From the IMG/VR virus record IMGVR_UViG_2667527789_000017: a stretch of 9,399 nt of DNA. One strand, written 5' to 3'. Positions 2,796-9,399 of the stretch are shown here, piece by piece. The notes under the pieces are model-generated. The model made no database searches. It was not told the DNA's origin and was given only the letters and a program-made list of their open reading frames with translations. Made by a program: the position numbers and the translations under genes. Source of the stretch: a virus. Taxonomy: Duplodnaviria > Heunggongvirae > Uroviricota > Caudoviricetes. How positions within the stretch are numbered: position 1 is the first letter of the stretch; each line of letters opens with the position of its first letter.

Positions 2796-3677
2796 TTACA
2801 TAGATGTTTCGTTTAATTCTTCCCGACAAACGCTGTAAACGTCGGTGGCTTTTGCCAGCAGTTCGTCATCATCTGAAAGTTTTTGTGCAATGTATTTGTA
2901 AGCCTTATCCAGTTCGGAGACAGTGCTGTAATTCATCGCTGCGCTGGTAAAGGCCATCAGCATTTCTTCTGGATCACGGCTATCCGCTTTACGCGTTTGC
3001 TCATCATGCTTTTTCGCTGGTTTAGCGTTGATCAGACTGTTCATTCCCGCAGCAGTAGTCGTTTGCGGAGTAATGTCTCGCTCAACACGCGGTGCCGTTT
3101 CCTGTAATTCGTCAGGGGTGTAAACACCGAGAAGCACATCAGGAGCGTGCAGGCGAGCCCATCGTTTCGTGCAAAGATAGGCAAGCTGCTGGCGCGGATC
3201 CTGTTCCCACAATGGAGAGTTACGCACTCCGGCTTGCGCCATACTGATGGTAAGCTCACGGGGTTCTGCTTCTCCTTTAAGAACTGCTGACACAGTTACC
3301 GTCAGATTCGGTGATTTATCTGTTTTGCCGTTAACATTCGACCAGTCACCGCTCCAGCGATAATTCAGGCGTGTCGCTAGCAGGCTGGAAGAGGATACGA
3401 CCGCGTTTACCAACTGTGCTTCGTAGCCTAACGTTCCGTTTACCACATGCGTTTTCTGCGCCACGGCGAAAGGGTTCATTCCCCACTGTGCCGCCTGCAT
3501 GGTCACCGCCAGACAATCGGCAGGTTTGCCTTCAAGATGTTTCGGTACAGTCGCTTTGCTTTGTGACATCAACTCCGCGAAACGCACCAGTTGATTCATG
3601 CCCTCCGGGCTGAAGATTGCCGCAGCAGTACCTACAGTTGCGCCTGGTTGTGATGTGATTGCGATATCATTGCTCAT
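2796..3677 (-). CDS. bet: Bet/Redbeta-family single-strand annealing protein (RecT superfamily)
   Basis: 293-aa ORF; local similarity by eye to lambda Bet (window NPFAVAQK... / RQQLAYLCTKRWARLHAPDVLLGVYTPDELQE / RVERDITPQ versus lambda NPWTKEIYAF... / MLRHKAMIQCARLAFGFAGIYDKDEAER / ERQPERDITP). ATG at 3677 overlaps the exonuclease stop (ATGA). Confidence 0.85.
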   Translation of the reverse strand: MSNDIAITSQPGATVGTAAAIFSPEGMNQLVRFAELMSQSKATVPKHLEGKPADCLAVTMQAAQWGMNPFAVAQKTHVVNGTLGYEAQLVNAVVSSSSLLATRLNYRWSGDWSNVNGKTDKSPNLTVTVSAVLKGEAEPRELTISMAQAGVRNSPLWEQDPRQQLAYLCTKRWARLHAPDVLLGVYTPDELQETAPRVERDITPQTTTAAGMNSLINAKPAKKHDEQTRKADSRDPEEMLMAFTSAAMNYSTVSELDKAYKYIAQKLSDDDELLAKATDVYSVCREELNETSM

Positions 3678-4495
3678 ACGTACATATCCTGTTTACGTGC
3701 CCAGTCAGGGCGTTTAATAATTTCCACTCCGCCCCACTCATCGTTGATGCGGCATTCGTGATAGGTATTCAGATCCCGGCGGAACAGAGCGTGCCCGGCA
3801 TCGACATCCGGCGCATCCAGCTCGAACACGCGTACCGGATACCGACCACAATCAATGCTTTCGCTCACGGCAAGAAAGAAAAAACCATGCGGCTGACCAG
3901 TAACCCTCATTGCGCCTTCGCGGTACATTGCGTCCTGCACGTGGTAGCGGAATTCCTCGATGTGGCGTGCAAAACGGTCCATATCTGCAACCTTTTTCAC
4001 GTCGACGATCACGTTGTGCTCGTTCAGCCATTTGTCTGGACGAATGCGGCACAACTCACCAGTATCTTCATCGTTCCAGTACATTGATGCTTCGCAGTAA
4101 CCAGGTGCTTCCAGCATCCAGCGTGCCGCCGGGTGAGCCATTGCGCTATCACGCATCATCTCCAGTTTCCGCCACTGCTCGGCATCAAGTACCGTAATCC
4201 CCATATCCGCCACATCACGAAGAAATGCCTCTTCGTCAGCTTTACCTTGTTTCGTCCGACGATCGAATTTCGGTGAAACAATGAAGCGTTTGTCGAACTC
4301 TCCAGGCTCCAGAAGCAGACAGTGCAATGCGGTTCCCATATCCAGTGCAGACTTTTTCTCTTCGTCTTCTGGTGCTGCCTGAACCCATTTAAGAAGCGCC
4401 GGATTCTTGGCAACCATGTCCAGTTGCGACTTACTCACGCCGTCACCGGCGTGGTAGTCTTCGTTGCTGATGTCGAAATAAATTCCCGGTTTCAT
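3674..4495 (-). CDS. RecE-like PD-(D/E)XK exonuclease (exonuclease VIII C-terminal-domain type)
   Basis: 273-aa ORF beginning MKPGIYFDISNEDYHAGDGVSKSQL, the typical N-terminal signature of the short RecE-like / PDDEXK phage exonucleases; candidate catalytic residues in RIRPD ... IVDVKK (D ... D-x-K). Directly upstream of and translationally coupled to the annealing-protein gene. Confidence 0.8.
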   Translation of the reverse strand: MKPGIYFDISNEDYHAGDGVSKSQLDMVAKNPALLKWVQAAPEDEEKKSALDMGTALHCLLLEPGEFDKRFIVSPKFDRRTKQGKADEEAFLRDVADMGITVLDAEQWRKLEMMRDSAMAHPAARWMLEAPGYCEASMYWNDEDTGELCRIRPDKWLNEHNVIVDVKKVADMDRFARHIEEFRYHVQDAMYREGAMRVTGQPHGFFFLAVSESIDCGRYPVRVFELDAPDVDAGHALFRRDLNTYHECRINDEWGGVEIIKRPDWARKQDMYV

Positions 4496-5099: not shown

Positions 5100-5684
5100 T
5101 TATTGTTTGCTTTTTTCGTTCTGGTTGATGACAAATTCAATGTAACTTTCGATCTTTGCTTTCTCGGTTTCGGGTAACAATGCGTAGCGCGAGCGGTCAT
5201 AGTTGATAGTCGCGGGGTCGTGCGGGTGAATCAGTAATTCATATCCGTGACGCCCGAATGCGGATGCAACATTCTCCAGGGTGGAAATGGAAACGCTGAC
5301 CTCATTGTTTAACAGGCGGCTGATTGTCACCTGGGCGACGCCGGATGCGCGGTGAAGTTTTCCCTGCGTTGAAAGGTCGCGGCTTTCGCTCATCCAGCGT
5401 TCCAGGTTGTGAGCCGCCAGCTGACCAATGTCGCTTGGTCCGACAGGCTGAAAACCTTCCTGAGAAAGCGAGCGATCGATATCAAGCCAGTTACGGGGTT
5501 TATTGGCGGCAGCTTCAATTTTTCGCGCAACCTGGTCGCCGATAACCTTCTTGCCAAGAGCCCAGCGGTTTACCAGATTTGCCTGAGTTCCAAGTTTTTC
5601 TGCCATCCGCGTCTGAACACCATTGAATTCACGGTCGATCAAGTCGTTGAGATTTTGCCTGCGGACGTCCTGGATACTTTTCAT
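5100..5684 (-). CDS. Prophage repressor (CI-like role) with two tandem Cro/C1-type HTH domains and no S24 peptidase domain
   Basis: 194-aa ORF divergent from a Cro-like gene across an operator-rich intergenic region. Two HTH_XRE-like segments: GVQTRMAEKLGTQANLVNRWALGKK and ASGVAQVTISRLLNNEVSVSISTLENVASAFG. C-terminus shows no LexA/CI-type autopeptidase signature. No SD within normal distance of the ATG at 5684, compatible with a leaderless or short-leader mRNA as for lambda cI from pRM. Confidence 0.75.
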   Translation of the reverse strand: MKSIQDVRRQNLNDLIDREFNGVQTRMAEKLGTQANLVNRWALGKKVIGDQVARKIEAAANKPRNWLDIDRSLSQEGFQPVGPSDIGQLAAHNLERWMSESRDLSTQGKLHRASGVAQVTISRLLNNEVSVSISTLENVASAFGRHGYELLIHPHDPATINYDRSRYALLPETEKAKIESYIEFVINQNEKSKQ

Positions 5685-5838: not shown

Positions 5839-6069
5839 ATGAGCGATAACGGACATTTCGATTTCAAAAAGCACTGGCTTGCACTTACTCCGGATGAGCG
5901 TGAAGCCTTCGCACAGGAAGCCGGAACGACGAGTCACTATATCCAGACTCACTTAACAGGTAAGCGCAAAATGCCAGGTAAGGTATTGATGAATGGGCTT
6001 TTTAAAGCCTGTAAAACAAGACAATGGCTGAGCTCAAAAGCAGAACTGGCATACTTCTTCTACTCATGA
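5839..6069 (+). CDS. Cro-like small HTH DNA-binding protein
   Basis: 76-aa ORF divergent from the repressor. AFAQEAGTTSHYIQTHLTGKRKMPGKVLMNGLFKAC resembles the Cro/YdaS-type HTH layout (compare lambda Cro [29 protein letters not shown]). Followed by a strong terminator. Confidence 0.7.
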   Translation: MSDNGHFDFKKHWLALTPDEREAFAQEAGTTSHYIQTHLTGKRKMPGKVLMNGLFKACKTRQWLSSKAELAYFFYS

Positions 6070-6090: not shown

Positions 6091-6114
6091 AGACCGCCAT
6101 CCGGCGGTCTTTTC
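6091..6114 (+). terminator. Rho-independent terminator after the Cro-like gene (tR1-like position)
   Basis: Stem AGACCGCC (6091-6098), loop ATCC, stem GGCGGTCT (6103-6110), then TTTT (6111-6114); 22 bp after the Cro-like stop. Confidence 0.8.
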
Positions 6115-6124
6115 ATATCTATTC

Positions 6125-6139
6125 GCACCTCAAAGGTAA
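6125..6139. promoter_or_regulatory. Operator-like site GCACCTCAAAGGTAA immediately downstream of the Cro-gene terminator
   Basis: Same family (GCACC variant left half, perfect GGTAA right half); lies 11 bp after the terminator T-run and about 80 bp before the next gene. Confidence 0.5.
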
Positions 6140-6217: not shown

Positions 6218-6430
6218 TTGAAGATAGTAACCAGAATGGAGGCCGCAAAAGCCGGGTTAAATCGCTATTTCACAGGAAAGCGGTGCCGTCACGGCCATCT
6301 CTCTGAAAGGTATGTTCTGAACGGAACATGTGTTGAATGTGCAATGAATAGCGCCAACCGCCATCGTAATGAATTTGCTTGTGCACTAAAGAGTGCAAGA
6401 GGGGAAACCTATGGCAAGCAGCTGGATTAA
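6218..6430 (+). CDS. Small protein with putative zinc-binding motif (C-x-H-x-H ... C-x2-C), function unknown
   Basis: 70-aa ORF from TTG at 6218 preceded by AAAGGGG 8 nt upstream; an internal ATG at 6236 has no SD. Motif GKRCRHGHLSERYVLNGTCVEC. Occupies the position between cro and the replication genes where lambda has cII, but shows no similarity to CII. 3' end overlaps the next gene by 20 nt. Confidence 0.5.
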   Translation: MKIVTRMEAAKAGLNRYFTGKRCRHGHLSERYVLNGTCVECAMNSANRHRNEFACALKSARGETYGKQLD

Positions 6431-7247
6431 GGTTGAAGTTATCACTCCTGATAAACCTGAAATTTTTCAGATAGCAGAAATTCTGGGTATTGATCCAGAT
6501 GCTGTTCTTGGAAAGCTGGTTCGTATATGGGCATGGGCTGACCAGCAAACAATAGACGGTAACGCTGGCAGCGTTACAAAAGGAGTACTTGATAGACTCG
6601 CTTTTATTACAGGATTTGCTGACGCCCTCATTAGCGTCGGATGGCTTGCTTATCATGACGGTAAACTAATTCTTCCAAACTTTGAGCGACACAATGGAGA
6701 ATCATCGAAAAAACGTGCACTTACGAATAGAAGAGTGGCAGAGCATCGAAAACGAGTAACGCAAAAAGTAACGCCAACAGCGTTACAAAAGGAGTTACCA
6801 GAGGAAGAGGAAGAGGAAGAGGAAGATATATATAAAACCCCACACATAGCGCACGTGCGCGAGGGTGCTCCGACCAGTGAAGCGAACGGTATGCCGTTGC
6901 AGGTGGCTGAACCTGAATTTCTGGATGGCCTGAGTGAACCCATCGGGAAATTTCCGATGACCGATGGTTGGCATCCGTCGCCGGATTTTCGACGGCGTGC
7001 TGTGCTGTGGGGAACGGCCCTGCCGGAACCGGAATTTACACCTGCTGAACTTGCTGCATTCCGGGATTACTGGATGGCTGAGGGCAAAGTGTTCACGCAG
7101 GTTCAGTGGGAACAAAAATTCGCCAGGCACGTAAATCATATCAGGGGAAAATCAAAAAACGCCGGGAAAAGCGATGAGCTTGACTGGAATAACACTGACT
7201 GGATAGAAGGGGTGTGGGATGAAATCAACTCCAGAACTTCTCAATGA
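6411..7247 (+). CDS. Replication initiation protein: phage replisome-organiser-like N-terminal region fused to a DnaT-like C-terminal domain
   Basis: ATG at 6411 preceded by AAGAGGGG with 6-nt spacing; the ORF-track start at 6393 has no SD. C-terminal IGKFPMTDGWHPSPDFRRRAVLWGTALPEPEFTPAELAAFRDYWMAEGKVFTQVQWEQKFARH aligns by eye with E. coli DnaT [61 protein letters not shown]. N-terminal SWIKVEVITPDKPEIFQIAEILGIDPDAVLGKLVRIWAWADQ resembles phage replisome-organiser N-domains. Central poly-Glu linker. Confidence 0.85.
   Translation: MASSWIKVEVITPDKPEIFQIAEILGIDPDAVLGKLVRIWAWADQQTIDGNAGSVTKGVLDRLAFITGFADALISVGWLAYHDGKLILPNFERHNGESSKKRALTNRRVAEHRKRVTQKVTPTALQKELPEEEEEEEEDIYKTPHIAHVREGAPTSEANGMPLQVAEPEFLDGLSEPIGKFPMTDGWHPSPDFRRRAVLWGTALPEPEFTPAELAAFRDYWMAEGKVFTQVQWEQKFARHVNHIRGKSKNAGKSDELDWNNTDWIEGVWDEINSRTSQ
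6559..6577. repeat. Inverted repeat GTAACGC-TGGCA-GCGTTAC followed by AAAAGGAGT (copy 1 of intragenic repeat)
   Basis: Directly read; 7-bp arms with 5-bp spacer, inside the replication-initiator gene. Confidence 0.7.
6756..6786. repeat. GTAACGC half-site (6756-6762) plus inverted repeat GTAACGC-CAACA-GCGTTAC (6768-6786) followed by AAAAGGAGT (copy 2)
   Basis: Shares GTAACGC ... CAGCGTTACAAAAGGAGT with copy 1 but sits in a different codon phase of the same gene (copy 1 starts at codon position 2, copy 2 at position 1), so the repeat is conserved at the DNA level rather than the protein level. Confidence 0.7.
6801..6824 (+). repeat. Hexanucleotide tandem repeat (GAGGAA)x4 encoding a poly-Glu linker
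   Basis: gaggaagaggaagaggaagaggaa read directly; translates as EEEEEEEE in the initiator gene and is followed by AT-rich GATATATATATAAAA. Confidence 0.9.
6849..6860. repeat. Perfect 12-bp palindrome GCGCACGTGCGC
   Basis: Read directly; lies just downstream of the AT-rich stretch inside the initiator gene. Confidence 0.7.
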
Positions 7248-7995
7248 GTACGATCGCTTACGTGAGCATGGTGTTGATGTGCATGAAGAGCGGCGTGGCA
7301 GCAATGGCAAAAAGGAGCAGGTTGCTAGAATTTTCAATGAACTATTTGTCCAGTTACAGGCTGCATTTCCTGCAAGCGTTTCGACCATAAGGGAGCAGAA
7401 CAAACTTAATGAATTCCGTAAGCAATGGATGCTTGCGTTTCTGGAGAATGGGATCACTACAATGGAACAGGTTAACGCTGGTATGCGCCACGCTCGCGCC
7501 AGTGAGTCTCCGTTCTGGCCGTCGCCAGGGCAATTCATCAAGTGGTGTAAAGACAGCAAGATGGTTCTTGGCGTCACCATTGACGATGTGATGGCGGAGT
7601 TTCACCGGTACAGCAAGGAAAAAAGTTTATATCCTGGTGGTCCCGAAAGATTCCCGTGGTGGCATCCGGTTATGTACTGGGTCGTATGTGATACCCGCCG
7701 TGCAATGTATCAGCGCCAGCTTAGCGAGATTGAGGTTGAGAAACACGCGCGCAGGCTGCTCGATGATTGGGCGAAAAAGGTGGCTTCCGGACAGCAGATA
7801 CCCGATCCGGTGATCAGCATACAGGCAAAGCCAGAACCCATGAGTACGCCTCCGGACACAGGGAGAGACGTTTACCATCCACCAGGGCGAAGTTTCGGGT
7901 GTATGCCTAACGCCGCCACCCTGGGGGGAATAACACCGGCGCAGTGGCTGATGGAGGAATGCAGGCGGGGAAAGGCGTCAGGATTTATCAAGTAA
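7219..7995 (+). CDS. P: Replication protein P homologue (lambda P-like helicase-loader)
   Basis: 258-aa ORF; VARIFNELFVQLQAAFPASVSTIREQNKLNEFRKQWMLAFLENGITTMEQVNAGMRHARASESPFWPSPGQFIKWC is near-colinear with lambda P VAQIINGVFSQLLATFPASLANRDQNEVNEIRRQWVLAFRENGITTMEQVNAGMRVARRQNRPFLPSPGQFVAWC. ATG at 7219 preceded by GAAGGGG; overlaps the 3' end of the initiator gene by 29 nt. Confidence 0.9.
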   Translation: MKSTPELLNEYDRLREHGVDVHEERRGSNGKKEQVARIFNELFVQLQAAFPASVSTIREQNKLNEFRKQWMLAFLENGITTMEQVNAGMRHARASESPFWPSPGQFIKWCKDSKMVLGVTIDDVMAEFHRYSKEKSLYPGGPERFPWWHPVMYWVVCDTRRAMYQRQLSEIEVEKHARRLLDDWAKKVASGQQIPDPVISIQAKPEPMSTPPDTGRDVYHPPGRSFGCMPNAATLGGITPAQWLMEECRRGKASGFIK

Positions 7996-8000
7996 TACCA

Positions 8001-8020
8001 GCGCGATAGCGCATTTTTTT
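8001..8020 (+). terminator. Weak candidate intrinsic terminator after the P-like gene
   Basis: Short stem GCGC (8001-8004), loop GATA, stem GCGC (8009-8012), then A and TTTTTTT (8014-8020). Only a 4-bp stem, so low confidence. Confidence 0.3.
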
Positions 8021-8032
8021 ACGCCTCGATAA

Positions 8033-8047
8033 TTACCTGTTGGGTAA
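8033..8047. promoter_or_regulatory. Operator-like palindrome TTACCTGTTGGGTAA
   Basis: Perfect TTACC-N5-GGTAA, upstream of the promoter-like elements that precede the gene at 8113. Confidence 0.7.
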
Positions 8048-8066
8048 TAAAATATTCTAAAATCTA

Positions 8067-8095
8067 TTGATTTAGTGTCTTATGTGGTTTTTAAT
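8067..8095 (+). promoter_or_regulatory. Putative sigma70 promoter for the downstream operon
   Basis: -35 TTGATT (8067-8072), 17-bp spacer, -10 TTTAAT (8090-8095); predicted start site falls inside operator site 8096-8110. Confidence 0.45.
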
Positions 8096-8110
8096 TACCT
8101 TAGAGGTAAA
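8096..8110. promoter_or_regulatory. Operator-like palindrome TTACCTTAGAGGTAA overlapping the transcription start and RBS of the gene at 8113
   Basis: Perfect TTACC-N5-GGTAA; its GAGG doubles as the Shine-Dalgarno sequence 6 nt before ATG 8113; centre 63 bp from the centre of site 8033-8047. Confidence 0.7.
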
Positions 8111-8112
8111 TC

Positions 8113-8457
8113 ATGAGAAAACAGATACAGGCTCTTGGTCGACTCAAAACAGGCCAGATGAACAAAACAGAATCTGCGTATTGCCAGCACCTTGAGCTGC
8201 GTAAACGTGCAGGAGAAATCGTCTGGTATCGATTTGAGGGTATCAAGCTGCGGTTAGCTGACAACACGTTCTATACGCCCGATTTTGCTGTGATGCTCGC
8301 CACCGGCGAGATGGAACTGCACGAAGTGAAAGGTTTCTGGACCGACGACGCCAGGGTGAAAACCAAAGTCGCCGCAGATCAGTATCCGTTCCGAATCATC
8401 GGGGTAACGGTTAAACCAAAGAAAGCAGGTGGTGGCTGGAACATCGAAGAGTTCTGA
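8113..8457 (+). CDS. DUF1064-like phage protein with PD-(D/E)XK nuclease-type motif (putative structure-specific nuclease)
   Basis: 114-aa ORF; FYTPDFAVM ... ELHEVKG gives a D ... E-x-K arrangement typical of PD-(D/E)XK nucleases. Overall pattern recalls the DUF1064 family of small phage proteins, assigned from memory only. Confidence 0.6.
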   Translation: MRKQIQALGRLKTGQMNKTESAYCQHLELRKRAGEIVWYRFEGIKLRLADNTFYTPDFAVMLATGEMELHEVKGFWTDDARVKTKVAADQYPFRIIGVTVKPKKAGGGWNIEEF

Positions 8458-8518
8458 ATCGACGATCTTTTTAGTTATCAATGTAATCAATAAGTTATGT
8501 GGATAAGCGAGGGTAAAG

Positions 8519-9079
8519 ATGGAAAGTAATATCAAAGGGTTAGTTGCCGCCGGGCATGAGATGGCTTCGGAACTGAAAGCAGAATGCGGTGCCGTTGATA
8601 TGCGCAGTGTGGCAAAGCTGATCAGCGATTTGGCAACGCAACTGGAAGTGCAACTGGTGCGTGCTAATGCGCTGGCCGAAGACCAGCAGAAAGCGATTGA
8701 GTCAATTAAGCAGGCTGATTCGGCTGTTAAGTTGGCACACGAGAAGTTTTCGGCGCTTGCGGCGGAGAATGAACTGGCTCGTAAGGCAGTTCAGGCATTC
8801 TGCGATGTTGTTGGCGACAACACCGAGGTTATCGCTGAGGAGGTTGGGCGAGATGGCGTTCTGGTTATTTTGGAGGCCATGAAGGCAACAGGAAATATGC
8901 CAGCCACCGATGCTTTCCTGTCGGATGTGCGGGCTGGGGCGTTTAACGACCTTTGCGCGGCGTTCGTTAAGGACGCGACGGTTGTCGGGCTGGACGATGG
9001 CGACATCGTTACGGTGAAAGAAGCGAAGGACGCCCTGCTGCATTGTGCGGAACAGCTTCGCAAAGGAGGCAACCAGTGA
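8519..9079 (+). CDS. Hypothetical phage protein (186 aa, Ala-rich, acidic, predicted helical)
   Basis: ORF preceded by GAGGG 5 nt before ATG 8519; consistent coding frame; stop TGA at 9077-9079 overlaps the GTG start of the next ORF. No family recognised. Confidence 0.6.
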   Translation: MESNIKGLVAAGHEMASELKAECGAVDMRSVAKLISDLATQLEVQLVRANALAEDQQKAIESIKQADSAVKLAHEKFSALAAENELARKAVQAFCDVVGDNTEVIAEEVGRDGVLVILEAMKATGNMPATDAFLSDVRAGAFNDLCAAFVKDATVVGLDDGDIVTVKEAKDALLHCAEQLRKGGNQ

Positions 9080-9399
9080 GCAAGATTGACTATCAGGCAC
9101 TGCGTGATGCGGCAGTAGCAATTGAAACAGTAGCAACGCCTCAAAAATTGCTGGCATTTCGTATGAAAGTCACACCTCAGGTTGTGCTGGCACTGCTGGA
9201 TGAACGGGAAAGAAACCAGCAATACATTAAACAGCGCGACCAGGAGAACGAGGAGATTGCGCTAACGGTAGGAAAGCTGCGTGTTGAGCTTGAGGAAGTA
9301 AAACAACACGCTGAAGAATTATCCGAAACCAAGGCTGTTCGTAACCAATGGCGGCCAGATATTTGCCCAATAACCGGACGTACATTTTTCATGTGGATT
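9076..9399 (+). CDS. Hypothetical phage protein, 5' partial (runs off the window); possibly Ea22-like coiled-coil protein
   Basis: Not in the supplied ORF track. GTG at 9076 preceded by AAGGAGG with 6-nt spacing and overlapping the upstream stop (GTGA). Open frame for 108 codons to the window end: VSKIDYQALRDAAVAIETVATPQKLLAFRMKVTPQVVLALLDERERNQQYIKQRDQENEEIALTVGKLRVELEEVKQHAEELSETKAVRNQWRPDICPITGRTFFMWI. The Ea22-like assignment is a weak recollection. Confidence 0.5.
   Translation, partial: MSKIDYQALRDAAVAIETVATPQKLLAFRMKVTPQVVLALLDERERNQQYIKQRDQENEEIALTVGKLRVELEEVKQHAEELSETKAVRNQWRPDICPITGRTFFMWI

Follow-up and report, generated by a model that had tools for sequence, protein, structure and literature searches.

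A putatively repressor-gated third early operon with a DUF1064 nuclease gene in a phiV10-type Escherichia coli prophage

The DNA stretch of 9,399 nucleotides (nt) taken from IMG/VR record IMGVR_UViG_2667527789_000017 (the window) can be assigned, by a list of its open reading frames (ORFs), profile searches and DNA comparison, to a phiV10/epsilon15-type (Uetakevirus) prophage of Escherichia coli, of which it covers the early region. At its right-hand end, positions 8001-9399 would represent the start of a third early transcription unit. We consider it fairly probable that this unit is an early operon gated by the prophage repressor, and that its first gene, ORF1, encodes an enzyme resolving branched DNA. 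The principal elements of the unit, together with the repressor gene (HTH, helix-turn-helix; aa, amino acids), are:

8001-8020, plus strand: weak intrinsic terminator after gene P, a GCGC-GAUA-GCGC stem-loop followed by A and U7
8033-8047: distal operator TTACCTGTTGGGTAA, an exact 15-bp palindrome centered about 62 bp upstream of the proximal operator
8067-8095, plus strand: inferred sigma-70 promoter 'P3', with -35 TTGATT (8067-8072), a 17-nt spacer and -10 TTTAAT (8090-8095)
8095-8109: proximal operator TTACCTTAGAGGTAA, an exact 15-bp palindrome
8113-8457, plus strand: ORF1, 114 aa, DUF1064 PD-(D/E)XK nuclease, equivalent of PhiV10p45; putative structure-specific/junction-resolving endonuclease
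8519-9079, plus strand: ORF2, 186 aa, Eae-like all-helical mosaic protein in the position of PhiV10p46 (phrog_492, 2e-49)
9076-9399, plus strand: ORF3, the first 108 codons of a 233-aa Ea22-like protein, with a GTG start and running off the window
5100-5684, minus strand: repressor gene, 194 aa, with two HTH regions and palindrome pairs on both sides

In the proposed mechanism, transcription of the replication genes would meet the weak terminator at 8001-8020, and a separate sigma-70 promoter (-35 at 8067-8072, -10 at 8090-8095), seated between two operators 62 bp or about six helical turns apart, would drive ORF1 and everything downstream of it. In the lysogen the two-HTH repressor would shut the operon off by binding cooperatively to the two sites, and upon inactivation of the repressor, in phiV10-type phages presumably by an antirepressor, the operon would fire alongside the left and right early operons. 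ORF1 would then cut the branched DNA arising from RecT/exonuclease recombination and from replication to yield packageable genomes, a role equivalent to that of RusA or Rap/NinG in the nin region of lambda. ORF2 and ORF3, both predicted to be helical and probably oligomeric with swappable C-terminal cassettes, would by analogy to lambda Ea22 probably modulate host functions or the lysis-lysogeny decision via protein-protein contacts.

ORF1 starts at the ATG at 8113, with a GAGG (8103-8106) ahead of it, and encodes a small single-domain protein that displays the conserved E...PD...E-x-K motif and the α-β-β-β-α-β core fold of the PD-(D/E)XK nuclease superfamily. An original prediction, made from the letters of the sequence, had proposed a PD-(D/E)XK-like first gene from its YTPDF and EVK motifs; both are present, at residues 54-58 (nt 8272-8286) and 71-73 (nt 8323-8331) respectively, and the protein passes the Pfam threshold for DUF1064 (PF06356; 31.3 bits versus a gathering cutoff of 24.7, residues 18-92). 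It additionally matches PHROG 190, which is labelled Holliday junction resolvase, with an E-value of 7e-43. The best 120 of its 6854 database homologues are all at least 80% identical to it, and family-wide conservation was instead taken from a representative search. The DUF1064-type family recovered thus comprises 4671 clusters at 50% identity; in a set of 50 representatives with 48-68% identity, the residues E20 and D57 never vary, E71 and K73 are kept in at least 90%, and the DUF1064 model is also matched by 42 of 50 diverse homologues. For DUF1064 a PD-(D/E)XK nuclease had been predicted in 2005 (PMC1189080), and ORF1 is a putative metal-dependent enzyme of this kind.

By sequence, the relative of known structure that is consistently recovered as the best is T7 endonuclease I (gp3; 149 aa), which is likewise of the PD-(D/E)XK type and resolves Holliday junctions. 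A profile-profile comparison with hhalign gave a probability of 92%, with 40% identity over 53 columns, and placed the YTPDF and E-x-KG segments of ORF1 on the T7 enzyme such that D57/E71/K73 align with its catalytic D55/E65/K67. The invariant E20 in helix 1 likewise matches E20 of T7, and precedes D57 by 37 residues as against 35 in T7. T7 endonuclease I is not among the top structural matches of the ORF1 model; as this model is a monomer, we suspect that the domain-swapped T7 dimer compares poorly with it.

The genomic setting of ORF1 is also consistent with a junction-resolving role. In annotated relatives the gene lies directly after that for the replication protein P, and in a Staphylococcus phage a DUF1064 gene, labelled junction endonuclease, likewise follows the helicase loader (PMC12323379). 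Homologues occur in many phage groups, and several of them are annotated as endonuclease I-like. Phages of the phiV10 type encode RecT together with an exonuclease. The whole annotation of phiV10 lists no RusA, Rap or RuvC, its only junction-resolvase candidate being the counterpart of ORF1. Conservation was assessed in a sample of 84 loci, consisting of 80 IMG/VR relatives, three GenBank/RefSeq loci (L001-L003) and the window, of which 83 could be scored. In the 83 loci ORF1 is 93-100% conserved and fixed in position, and in this it behaves as a core rather than an accessory gene. Taken together, these observations suggest that ORF1 is probably the structure-specific, junction-resolving nuclease of the phage.

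A comparable arrangement is seen in the nin region of lambda with its Rap/NinG and RusA nucleases, where a small structure-specific nuclease is similarly encoded just past the replication genes and behind a terminator. However, the lambda nin resolvases belong to folds and families unrelated to ORF1. Furthermore, the nin region is reached by N-mediated antitermination from pR, whereas the unit in the window would possess a repressor-controlled promoter of its own, and this unit also includes genes that in lambdoid phages belong to the exo-xis region.

Several observations weigh against the junction-resolvase reading of ORF1 or against the gated promoter. ORF1 falls below the cutoff of the Pfam Phage_endo_I model (PF05367; 14.9 versus 29.1 bits), and as this threshold was not reached we do not file it in the T7 endonuclease I family; only 5 of the 50 family members match that model at E<=0.01. 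The match to T7 endonuclease I in the PDB is borderline, with E-values between 0.05 and 0.2 (0.2 for ORF1 with phmmer, 0.048 with the family profile), and the T7 sequence used in the hhalign comparison agrees with the PDB alignment. Fold searches place ORF1 equally near to tRNA-splicing endonucleases, Bax1, TnsA and restriction enzymes, so that a branched-DNA substrate is tentative. As to transcription, the P3 hexamers (TTTAAT and TTGATT) are imperfect and were not called by a consensus scan, the predicted leader is only about 10 nt long, and, the terminator ahead of P3 being weak, read-through from the rightward promoter may contribute. The searched literature yielded no DUF1064 nuclease assay, operator footprint or mapped transcription start, and the Ea22 analogy gives little indication of mechanism.

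The generic character of the fold matches leaves room for ORF1 being some other PD-(D/E)XK enzyme, such as a sequence-specific nicking or restriction-like nuclease, or one acting in replication initiation or packaging. Seven of the 50 family members also match a TnsA-like Pfam model and two a restriction enzyme model, some records name the homologues 'putative restriction endonuclease', and the 2005 analysis tied DUF1064 to the T4 head completion protein gp4 (PMC1189080). Set against this, ORF1 is a single domain of 114 aa with no additional DNA-recognition domain, T7 endonuclease I, throughout its best sequence-level relative of known structure, aligns with it at all four catalytic residues, and the phage encodes recombination genes with no other annotated resolvase. 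We therefore regard a different activity as rather unlikely, though it is the likeliest of the alternatives. Since DUF1064 is a very large family for which no published biochemistry was found, a phage with no other annotated resolvase would offer a clean test system for its function.

The case for separate control of this nuclease gene begins with the palindrome TTACC-N5-GGTAA, which occurs seven times in the window at no more than one mismatch against an expectation of 0.18, a count reached in none of 200 shuffles. Six of the seven matches form three pairs: 4966/5028 at the leftward early promoter, just 5' of the leftward early genes and past the terminator of the repressor gene; 5740/5788 in the gap separating the repressor gene from cro; and 8033/8095 in that from gene P to ORF1. 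The proximal member of the last pair reaches from the last base of the predicted -10 element over the presumed start site and the Shine-Dalgarno sequence GAGG (8103-8106), and ends 4 nt from the ORF1 start codon. The seventh copy, TTATCATGACGGTAA (6650-6664, one mismatch), lies inside the DnaT-like replication gene and is retained in the closely related prophage of E. coli STEC1585 (locus L001); it could be a chance occurrence, or else an origin or repressor site.

Across the relatives the distal site is found at -80 from the ORF1 ATG in all 83 loci and the proximal site at -18 from the start in 82 of them. The 70 distinct sequences found upstream of ORF1 show no change in the half-sites, whereas the four bases at the center and those flanking the sites are free to vary; the block CTATTGA, which holds the -35 element TTGATT, is likewise invariant. 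The half-sites are the same in all 83 loci and in Salmonella phage SPN1S, so that these sequences show conservation and are uninformative on co-variation of operator and repressor. The 62-bp spacing of the pair is kept in the window, L001, phiV10 and SPN1S, and the leftward pair shows this spacing too. Moreover, when the region upstream of ORF1 is set against the leftward promoter region, that of the window as well as those of phiV10 and SPN1S, no gap is needed over 85 nt; both operators and CTATTGA stay in register, and the leftward -35 is TTGACA. Because of this register we read 8067-8095 as a promoter that is apparently a copy of the leftward early promoter cassette. These findings lend support to the earlier proposal of a separately promoted, operator-flanked unit, with repressor binding and promoter activity being predicted from sequence. 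The only plus-strand promoter that the consensus scan did call here (TCGATA-16-TAAAAT, 8026-8053) was rejected, its -35 element being among the least conserved stretches in 70 relatives.

The unit is bracketed by terminators and would be separately controlled. The upstream terminator at 8001-8020 folds as RNA with -7.4 kcal/mol (z -3.7), and the 70 distinct relatives keep its stem and T-run but differ in the loop (GATA, GACA, GGCA). With no more than four pairs in its stem it escaped the consensus scan. The phiV10 record has a terminator annotated at the same place. As the original prediction had anticipated, the module continues beyond the window, which is seen directly in L001: in relatives about ten small genes follow, up to a strong terminator some 4 kb further on that closes the operon and directly after which come a tandem palindrome pair and the start of the terminase small subunit, the terminase genes thus having operators of their own.

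A competing view would be that the unit has no promoter of its own, its genes simply forming the far end of the rightward early operon, with the palindromes as repressor roadblocks or looping anchors. The weak terminator with its four GC pairs and the imperfect hexamers that escaped the consensus scan are compatible with this, as is the closeness of the proximal site to the start codon, where bound repressor could also block elongation or translation. However, the sequence with which the 85-nt cassette aligns ungapped, that ahead of the leftward early genes, has to be a promoter; the CTATTGA block is invariant in both, and in the 70 distinct relatives, amidst neighboring bases that drift; and the unit has a terminator directly upstream and another at its end. 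On balance a promoterless unit appears improbable.

The probable binder of these palindromes is the repressor encoded at 5100-5684, which contains a YdaS-type HTH at residues 20-60 and a Pfam HTH_3 domain at 105-146, and whose counterparts in phiV10 and SPN1S are annotated as putative repressors. A domain search detected no peptidase or LexA-like cleavage domain in it. With two HTH regions and no cleavage domain, one repressor protein could contact both half-sites, and its induction could proceed via an antirepressor, as has been proposed for the sister phage ZX5 (PMC9782041). The system resembles that of lambda CI at OL and OR in that palindromic operators overlap early promoters and are common to the repressor-cro region and the leftward promoter. 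Unlike in lambda, the same operator would also gate a third early promoter and, in relatives, packaging, structural and antirepressor units; the repressor differs from CI in its two HTH regions and in having no self-cleaving domain; and in place of the tandem triplets of lambda, the P3 and leftward sites of the window and phiV10 are pairs 62 bp apart that bracket the promoter.

In phiV10 the exact palindromes all lie within regulatory gaps, and outside the early region (29 kb) three are found against 0.02 expected. These further sites, at 87-101, 3252-3266 and 20497-20511 of NC_007804, are situated before the terminase genes, upstream of the portal operon and beside the Bro-N antirepressor gene. 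All 66 relatives with at least 5 kb of downstream sequence have at least one further palindrome site, and the large majority of them have the tandem pair before the terminase. As palindromes are also present at the terminase, the portal operon and the antirepressor gene, the repressor seems to gate most transcription units directly. In L001 the tandem pair occupies 16291-16362, after the strong terminator and just before the start of the terminase small subunit. The annotated start of that subunit (L001 16281; phiV10 41) is upstream of the terminator hairpin and the operator pair, and the ATG at about 16359-16362 of L001, behind the operators, looks like the real one. A modest generalization would be that Uetakevirus-type prophages gate every unit directly with one two-HTH repressor and one palindrome, using no antitermination cascade. 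The searched literature contained no description of phiV10/epsilon15 operators or of such a one-repressor direct-gating architecture; the original epsilon15 and phiV10 genome papers were outside the search, and a prior description is possible. The sequence would point to a third early promoter under repressor control, and in the relatives to operators spread over the whole genome, in phages whose regulation has hardly been studied.

The two genes following ORF1 can both be assigned to named families, in contrast to the original prediction, which had found none for them. All three plus-strand ORFs that it had listed were recovered, at 8113-8457, 8519-9079 and from 9076 to the end of the window, and the 6854 homologues of ORF1, the 6957 of ORF2 and the Pfam Ead_Ea22 score of 68 bits for ORF3 establish them as real genes. 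The claimed overlap of starts holds for ORF2 and ORF3, where the GTG start of ORF3 overlaps the ORF2 stop as GTGA (9076-9079; Shine-Dalgarno GGAGG at 9064-9068), but not for ORF1 and ORF2, as the ATG of ORF2 at 8519 lies 61 nt past ORF1. This spacer (8458-8518 of the window) measures 61-64 nt in 82 loci, being 61 nt in most relatives and 64 nt in some, with one exception of 49 nt.

ORF2 has no Pfam match at E<=0.1, and NCBIfam provides no family above noise for ORF1, ORF2 or ORF3. Its counterpart in phiV10 is annotated as eae-like, and tblastn matches include the Eae/EaE-like genes of PAS61, ZX5, MG40, SPC32H and ES18 (gp43); it also resembles unnamed exo-xis-region genes of Shiga toxin (Stx) phages. 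Among the matches listed (the best 120 of 6957), nearly all named ones are from E. coli. With the Eae-like proteins that P22-like and Stx phages encode (ES18 gp43, ST104 orf9) it shares 37-55% identity over most of its length, but in those phages the eae genes lie in the leftward 'ea'/exo-xis region, whereas ORF2 takes second place in the third early operon. The AlphaFold2 model is all-α and elongated, with a 75-residue helix at 26-100 and a predicted template-modelling score of 0.37; a PDB sequence search returned nothing below an E-value of 0.49 and the best Foldseek E-value was 2.8, neither of which is informative. A paralogous relationship of ORF2 with lambda Ea22 or with ORF3 was rejected, the hhalign probabilities being 0.2% and 0.1%; despite this, RefSeq names the ORF2 orthologues 'ead/Ea22-like'.

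The ORF2 family is a mosaic, in which a constant head of about 50 residues is followed by an optional 28-residue heptad block, alternative middle segments, the hinge ATDAFLAEVRA, seen as PATDAFL in the alignment, a variable C-terminal cassette and the constant tail QLRKGGNQ, within whose codons the following gene has its ribosome-binding site and start. There are at least 17 types of the C-terminal cassette among 60 loci, the protein is between 134 and 363 aa long across 82 loci, and an Ea22 segment is fused in-frame to some variants. More than 50 length variants of the gene are seen in the 82 loci (8519-9079 and its counterparts in L001-L083), and the interchangeable segments are divided by the fixed motifs ALAAEN, ATDAFLAEVRA, QLRKGGNQ and LLDERERNQQYIK. 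The Eae-like gene is a striking case of cassette shuffling between fixed junction motifs.

Its sequence marks ORF3 as a genuine homologue of lambda Ea22. The part in the window scores 68.3 bits against Pfam Ead_Ea22 (PF13935; cutoff 27) and its full-length relative 64.3 bits; BLASTP against lambda Ea22 gives 7e-25, with near-identity over residues 33-75 and a common C-terminal tail AGIRIKG. The Ea22 protein of lambda is made early, forms a coiled-coil tetramer and favors lysogeny (PMC10834534, PMC7093339); in it a coiled coil connects the short N-terminus to a C-terminal domain that varies (PMC10834534). The likeness of ORF3 extends over the N-terminal and coiled-coil part and the tail, and includes its being an early gene. 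Past about residue 75 the alignment is gapped and weak, with only the last 12 residues matching, and the lambda-type C-terminal domain, for which a fold has been solved by nuclear magnetic resonance, was not detected in the ORF3 protein, the C-terminal domain of whose full-length relative is unlike that of lambda. The gene order also differs, since ea22 of lambda lies in the exo-xis region of the leftward operon and ORF3 in a right-hand operon after the replication genes. The full-length frame is intact at L001 13087-13788 (233 aa from the GTG). RefSeq splits this STEC1585 orthologue (L001 13087-13788) into two partial 'ead/Ea22-like' pseudogene fragments, which is probably an artefact of mosaic similarity.

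The diversification of ORF2 and ORF3 could be taken to favor a defence or anti-defence cassette, in which ORF1 attacks the DNA of competing phages or the host and ORF2 and ORF3 are diversified immunity inhibitors, and the original prediction had ranked this module as the best candidate in the window for an accessory or undescribed function, naming defence and anti-defence among the contexts of small PD-(D/E)XK proteins. That ranking was not supported, and we consider such a cassette quite unlikely: PADLOC returned no match for ORF1 or ORF3 and for ORF2 only a weak one to JetD (E 0.0014, 15.9 bits) over a helical stretch, which is not credible; ORF1 behaves as a syntenic core gene in its conservation and fixed position; its homologues reside within the DNA-replication modules of unrelated phages; and P3 looks set up for silence in the lysogen, a state that speaks against a defence expressed from the prophage. 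An early anti-defence or host-modulating role confined to the shuffled ORF2 and ORF3 is similarly doubtful, and the same low likelihood attaches to the bolder conjecture that the P3 operon is a repressor-gated host-takeover/counter-defence unit with ORF2 as a shuffled scaffold, each cassette of which has its own host target. As a result that would speak against an accessory role, the original prediction had named matches of all three ORFs to well-characterised housekeeping phage proteins among ordinary neighbors; the neighbors are indeed of the ordinary phiV10 type and the three genes belong to named families, among which only lambda Ea22 has been partly characterised biochemically.

The repressor-gated operon that we favor is, as a gene module, already known: it is a very common prophage module and not a new defence or anti-defence system. 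Positions 7990-9399 are 98.4% identical to a prophage beside guaA in E. coli STEC1585 (L001), and an insertion site adjoining guaA would be expected for the present prophage. The L001 prophage has the gene order integrase, RecT, YqaJ exonuclease, repressor, DnaT-like O and P, followed after P by DUF1064, Ea22-like genes, small genes and terminase, an order common to it, phiV10 p40-p55 and SPN1S. In phiV10 p45-p48 (NC_007804) and the corresponding SPN1S region the same succession of terminator, DUF1064, Eae-like and Ea22-like gene follows P, with the same two palindromes upstream at 62-bp spacing. The DUF1064 protein there is 97% identical to ORF1, but the bodies of the Eae-like and Ea22-like genes are mosaic variants unlike those of the window, and the DNA identity stops about 50 codons into ORF2. 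Among 5426 complete E. coli genomes 2602 match parts of 7990-9399, but ORF2 and ORF3 in the version of the window are matched end to end in only five. The discovery value of the three genes is accordingly little, given that they are near-identical to annotated genes of phiV10-like prophages in many E. coli genomes; the operator network and the cassette-shuffled Eae-like gene provide two modest leads.

The remaining genes of the window are as follows:

1-1251: integrase
Between integrase and RecT, in window order: genes for an MT-A70 methyltransferase, a PerC-like and an AlpA-like protein
2796-3677, minus strand: RecT
3674-4495, minus strand: YqaJ-type exonuclease
5839-6069: cro
6393-7247: DnaT-like initiator (replication gene)
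7219-7995: lambda-P-like helicase loader (replication gene P)
8254-8535, 8702-9157 and 8791-9222, minus strand: ORFs antisense to genes with thousands of homologues

An Rfam scan of the whole window detected no RNA family. After cro there is a strong terminator (6091-6110, -15 kcal/mol), downstream of which lies a degenerate operator, GCACCTCAAAGGTAA (6125-6139, two mismatches), with the phiV10 counterpart GTACCTCAAAGGTAA. This site precedes a small gene at 6218 and the replication genes, and 6091-6139 may represent another gated or attenuated junction.

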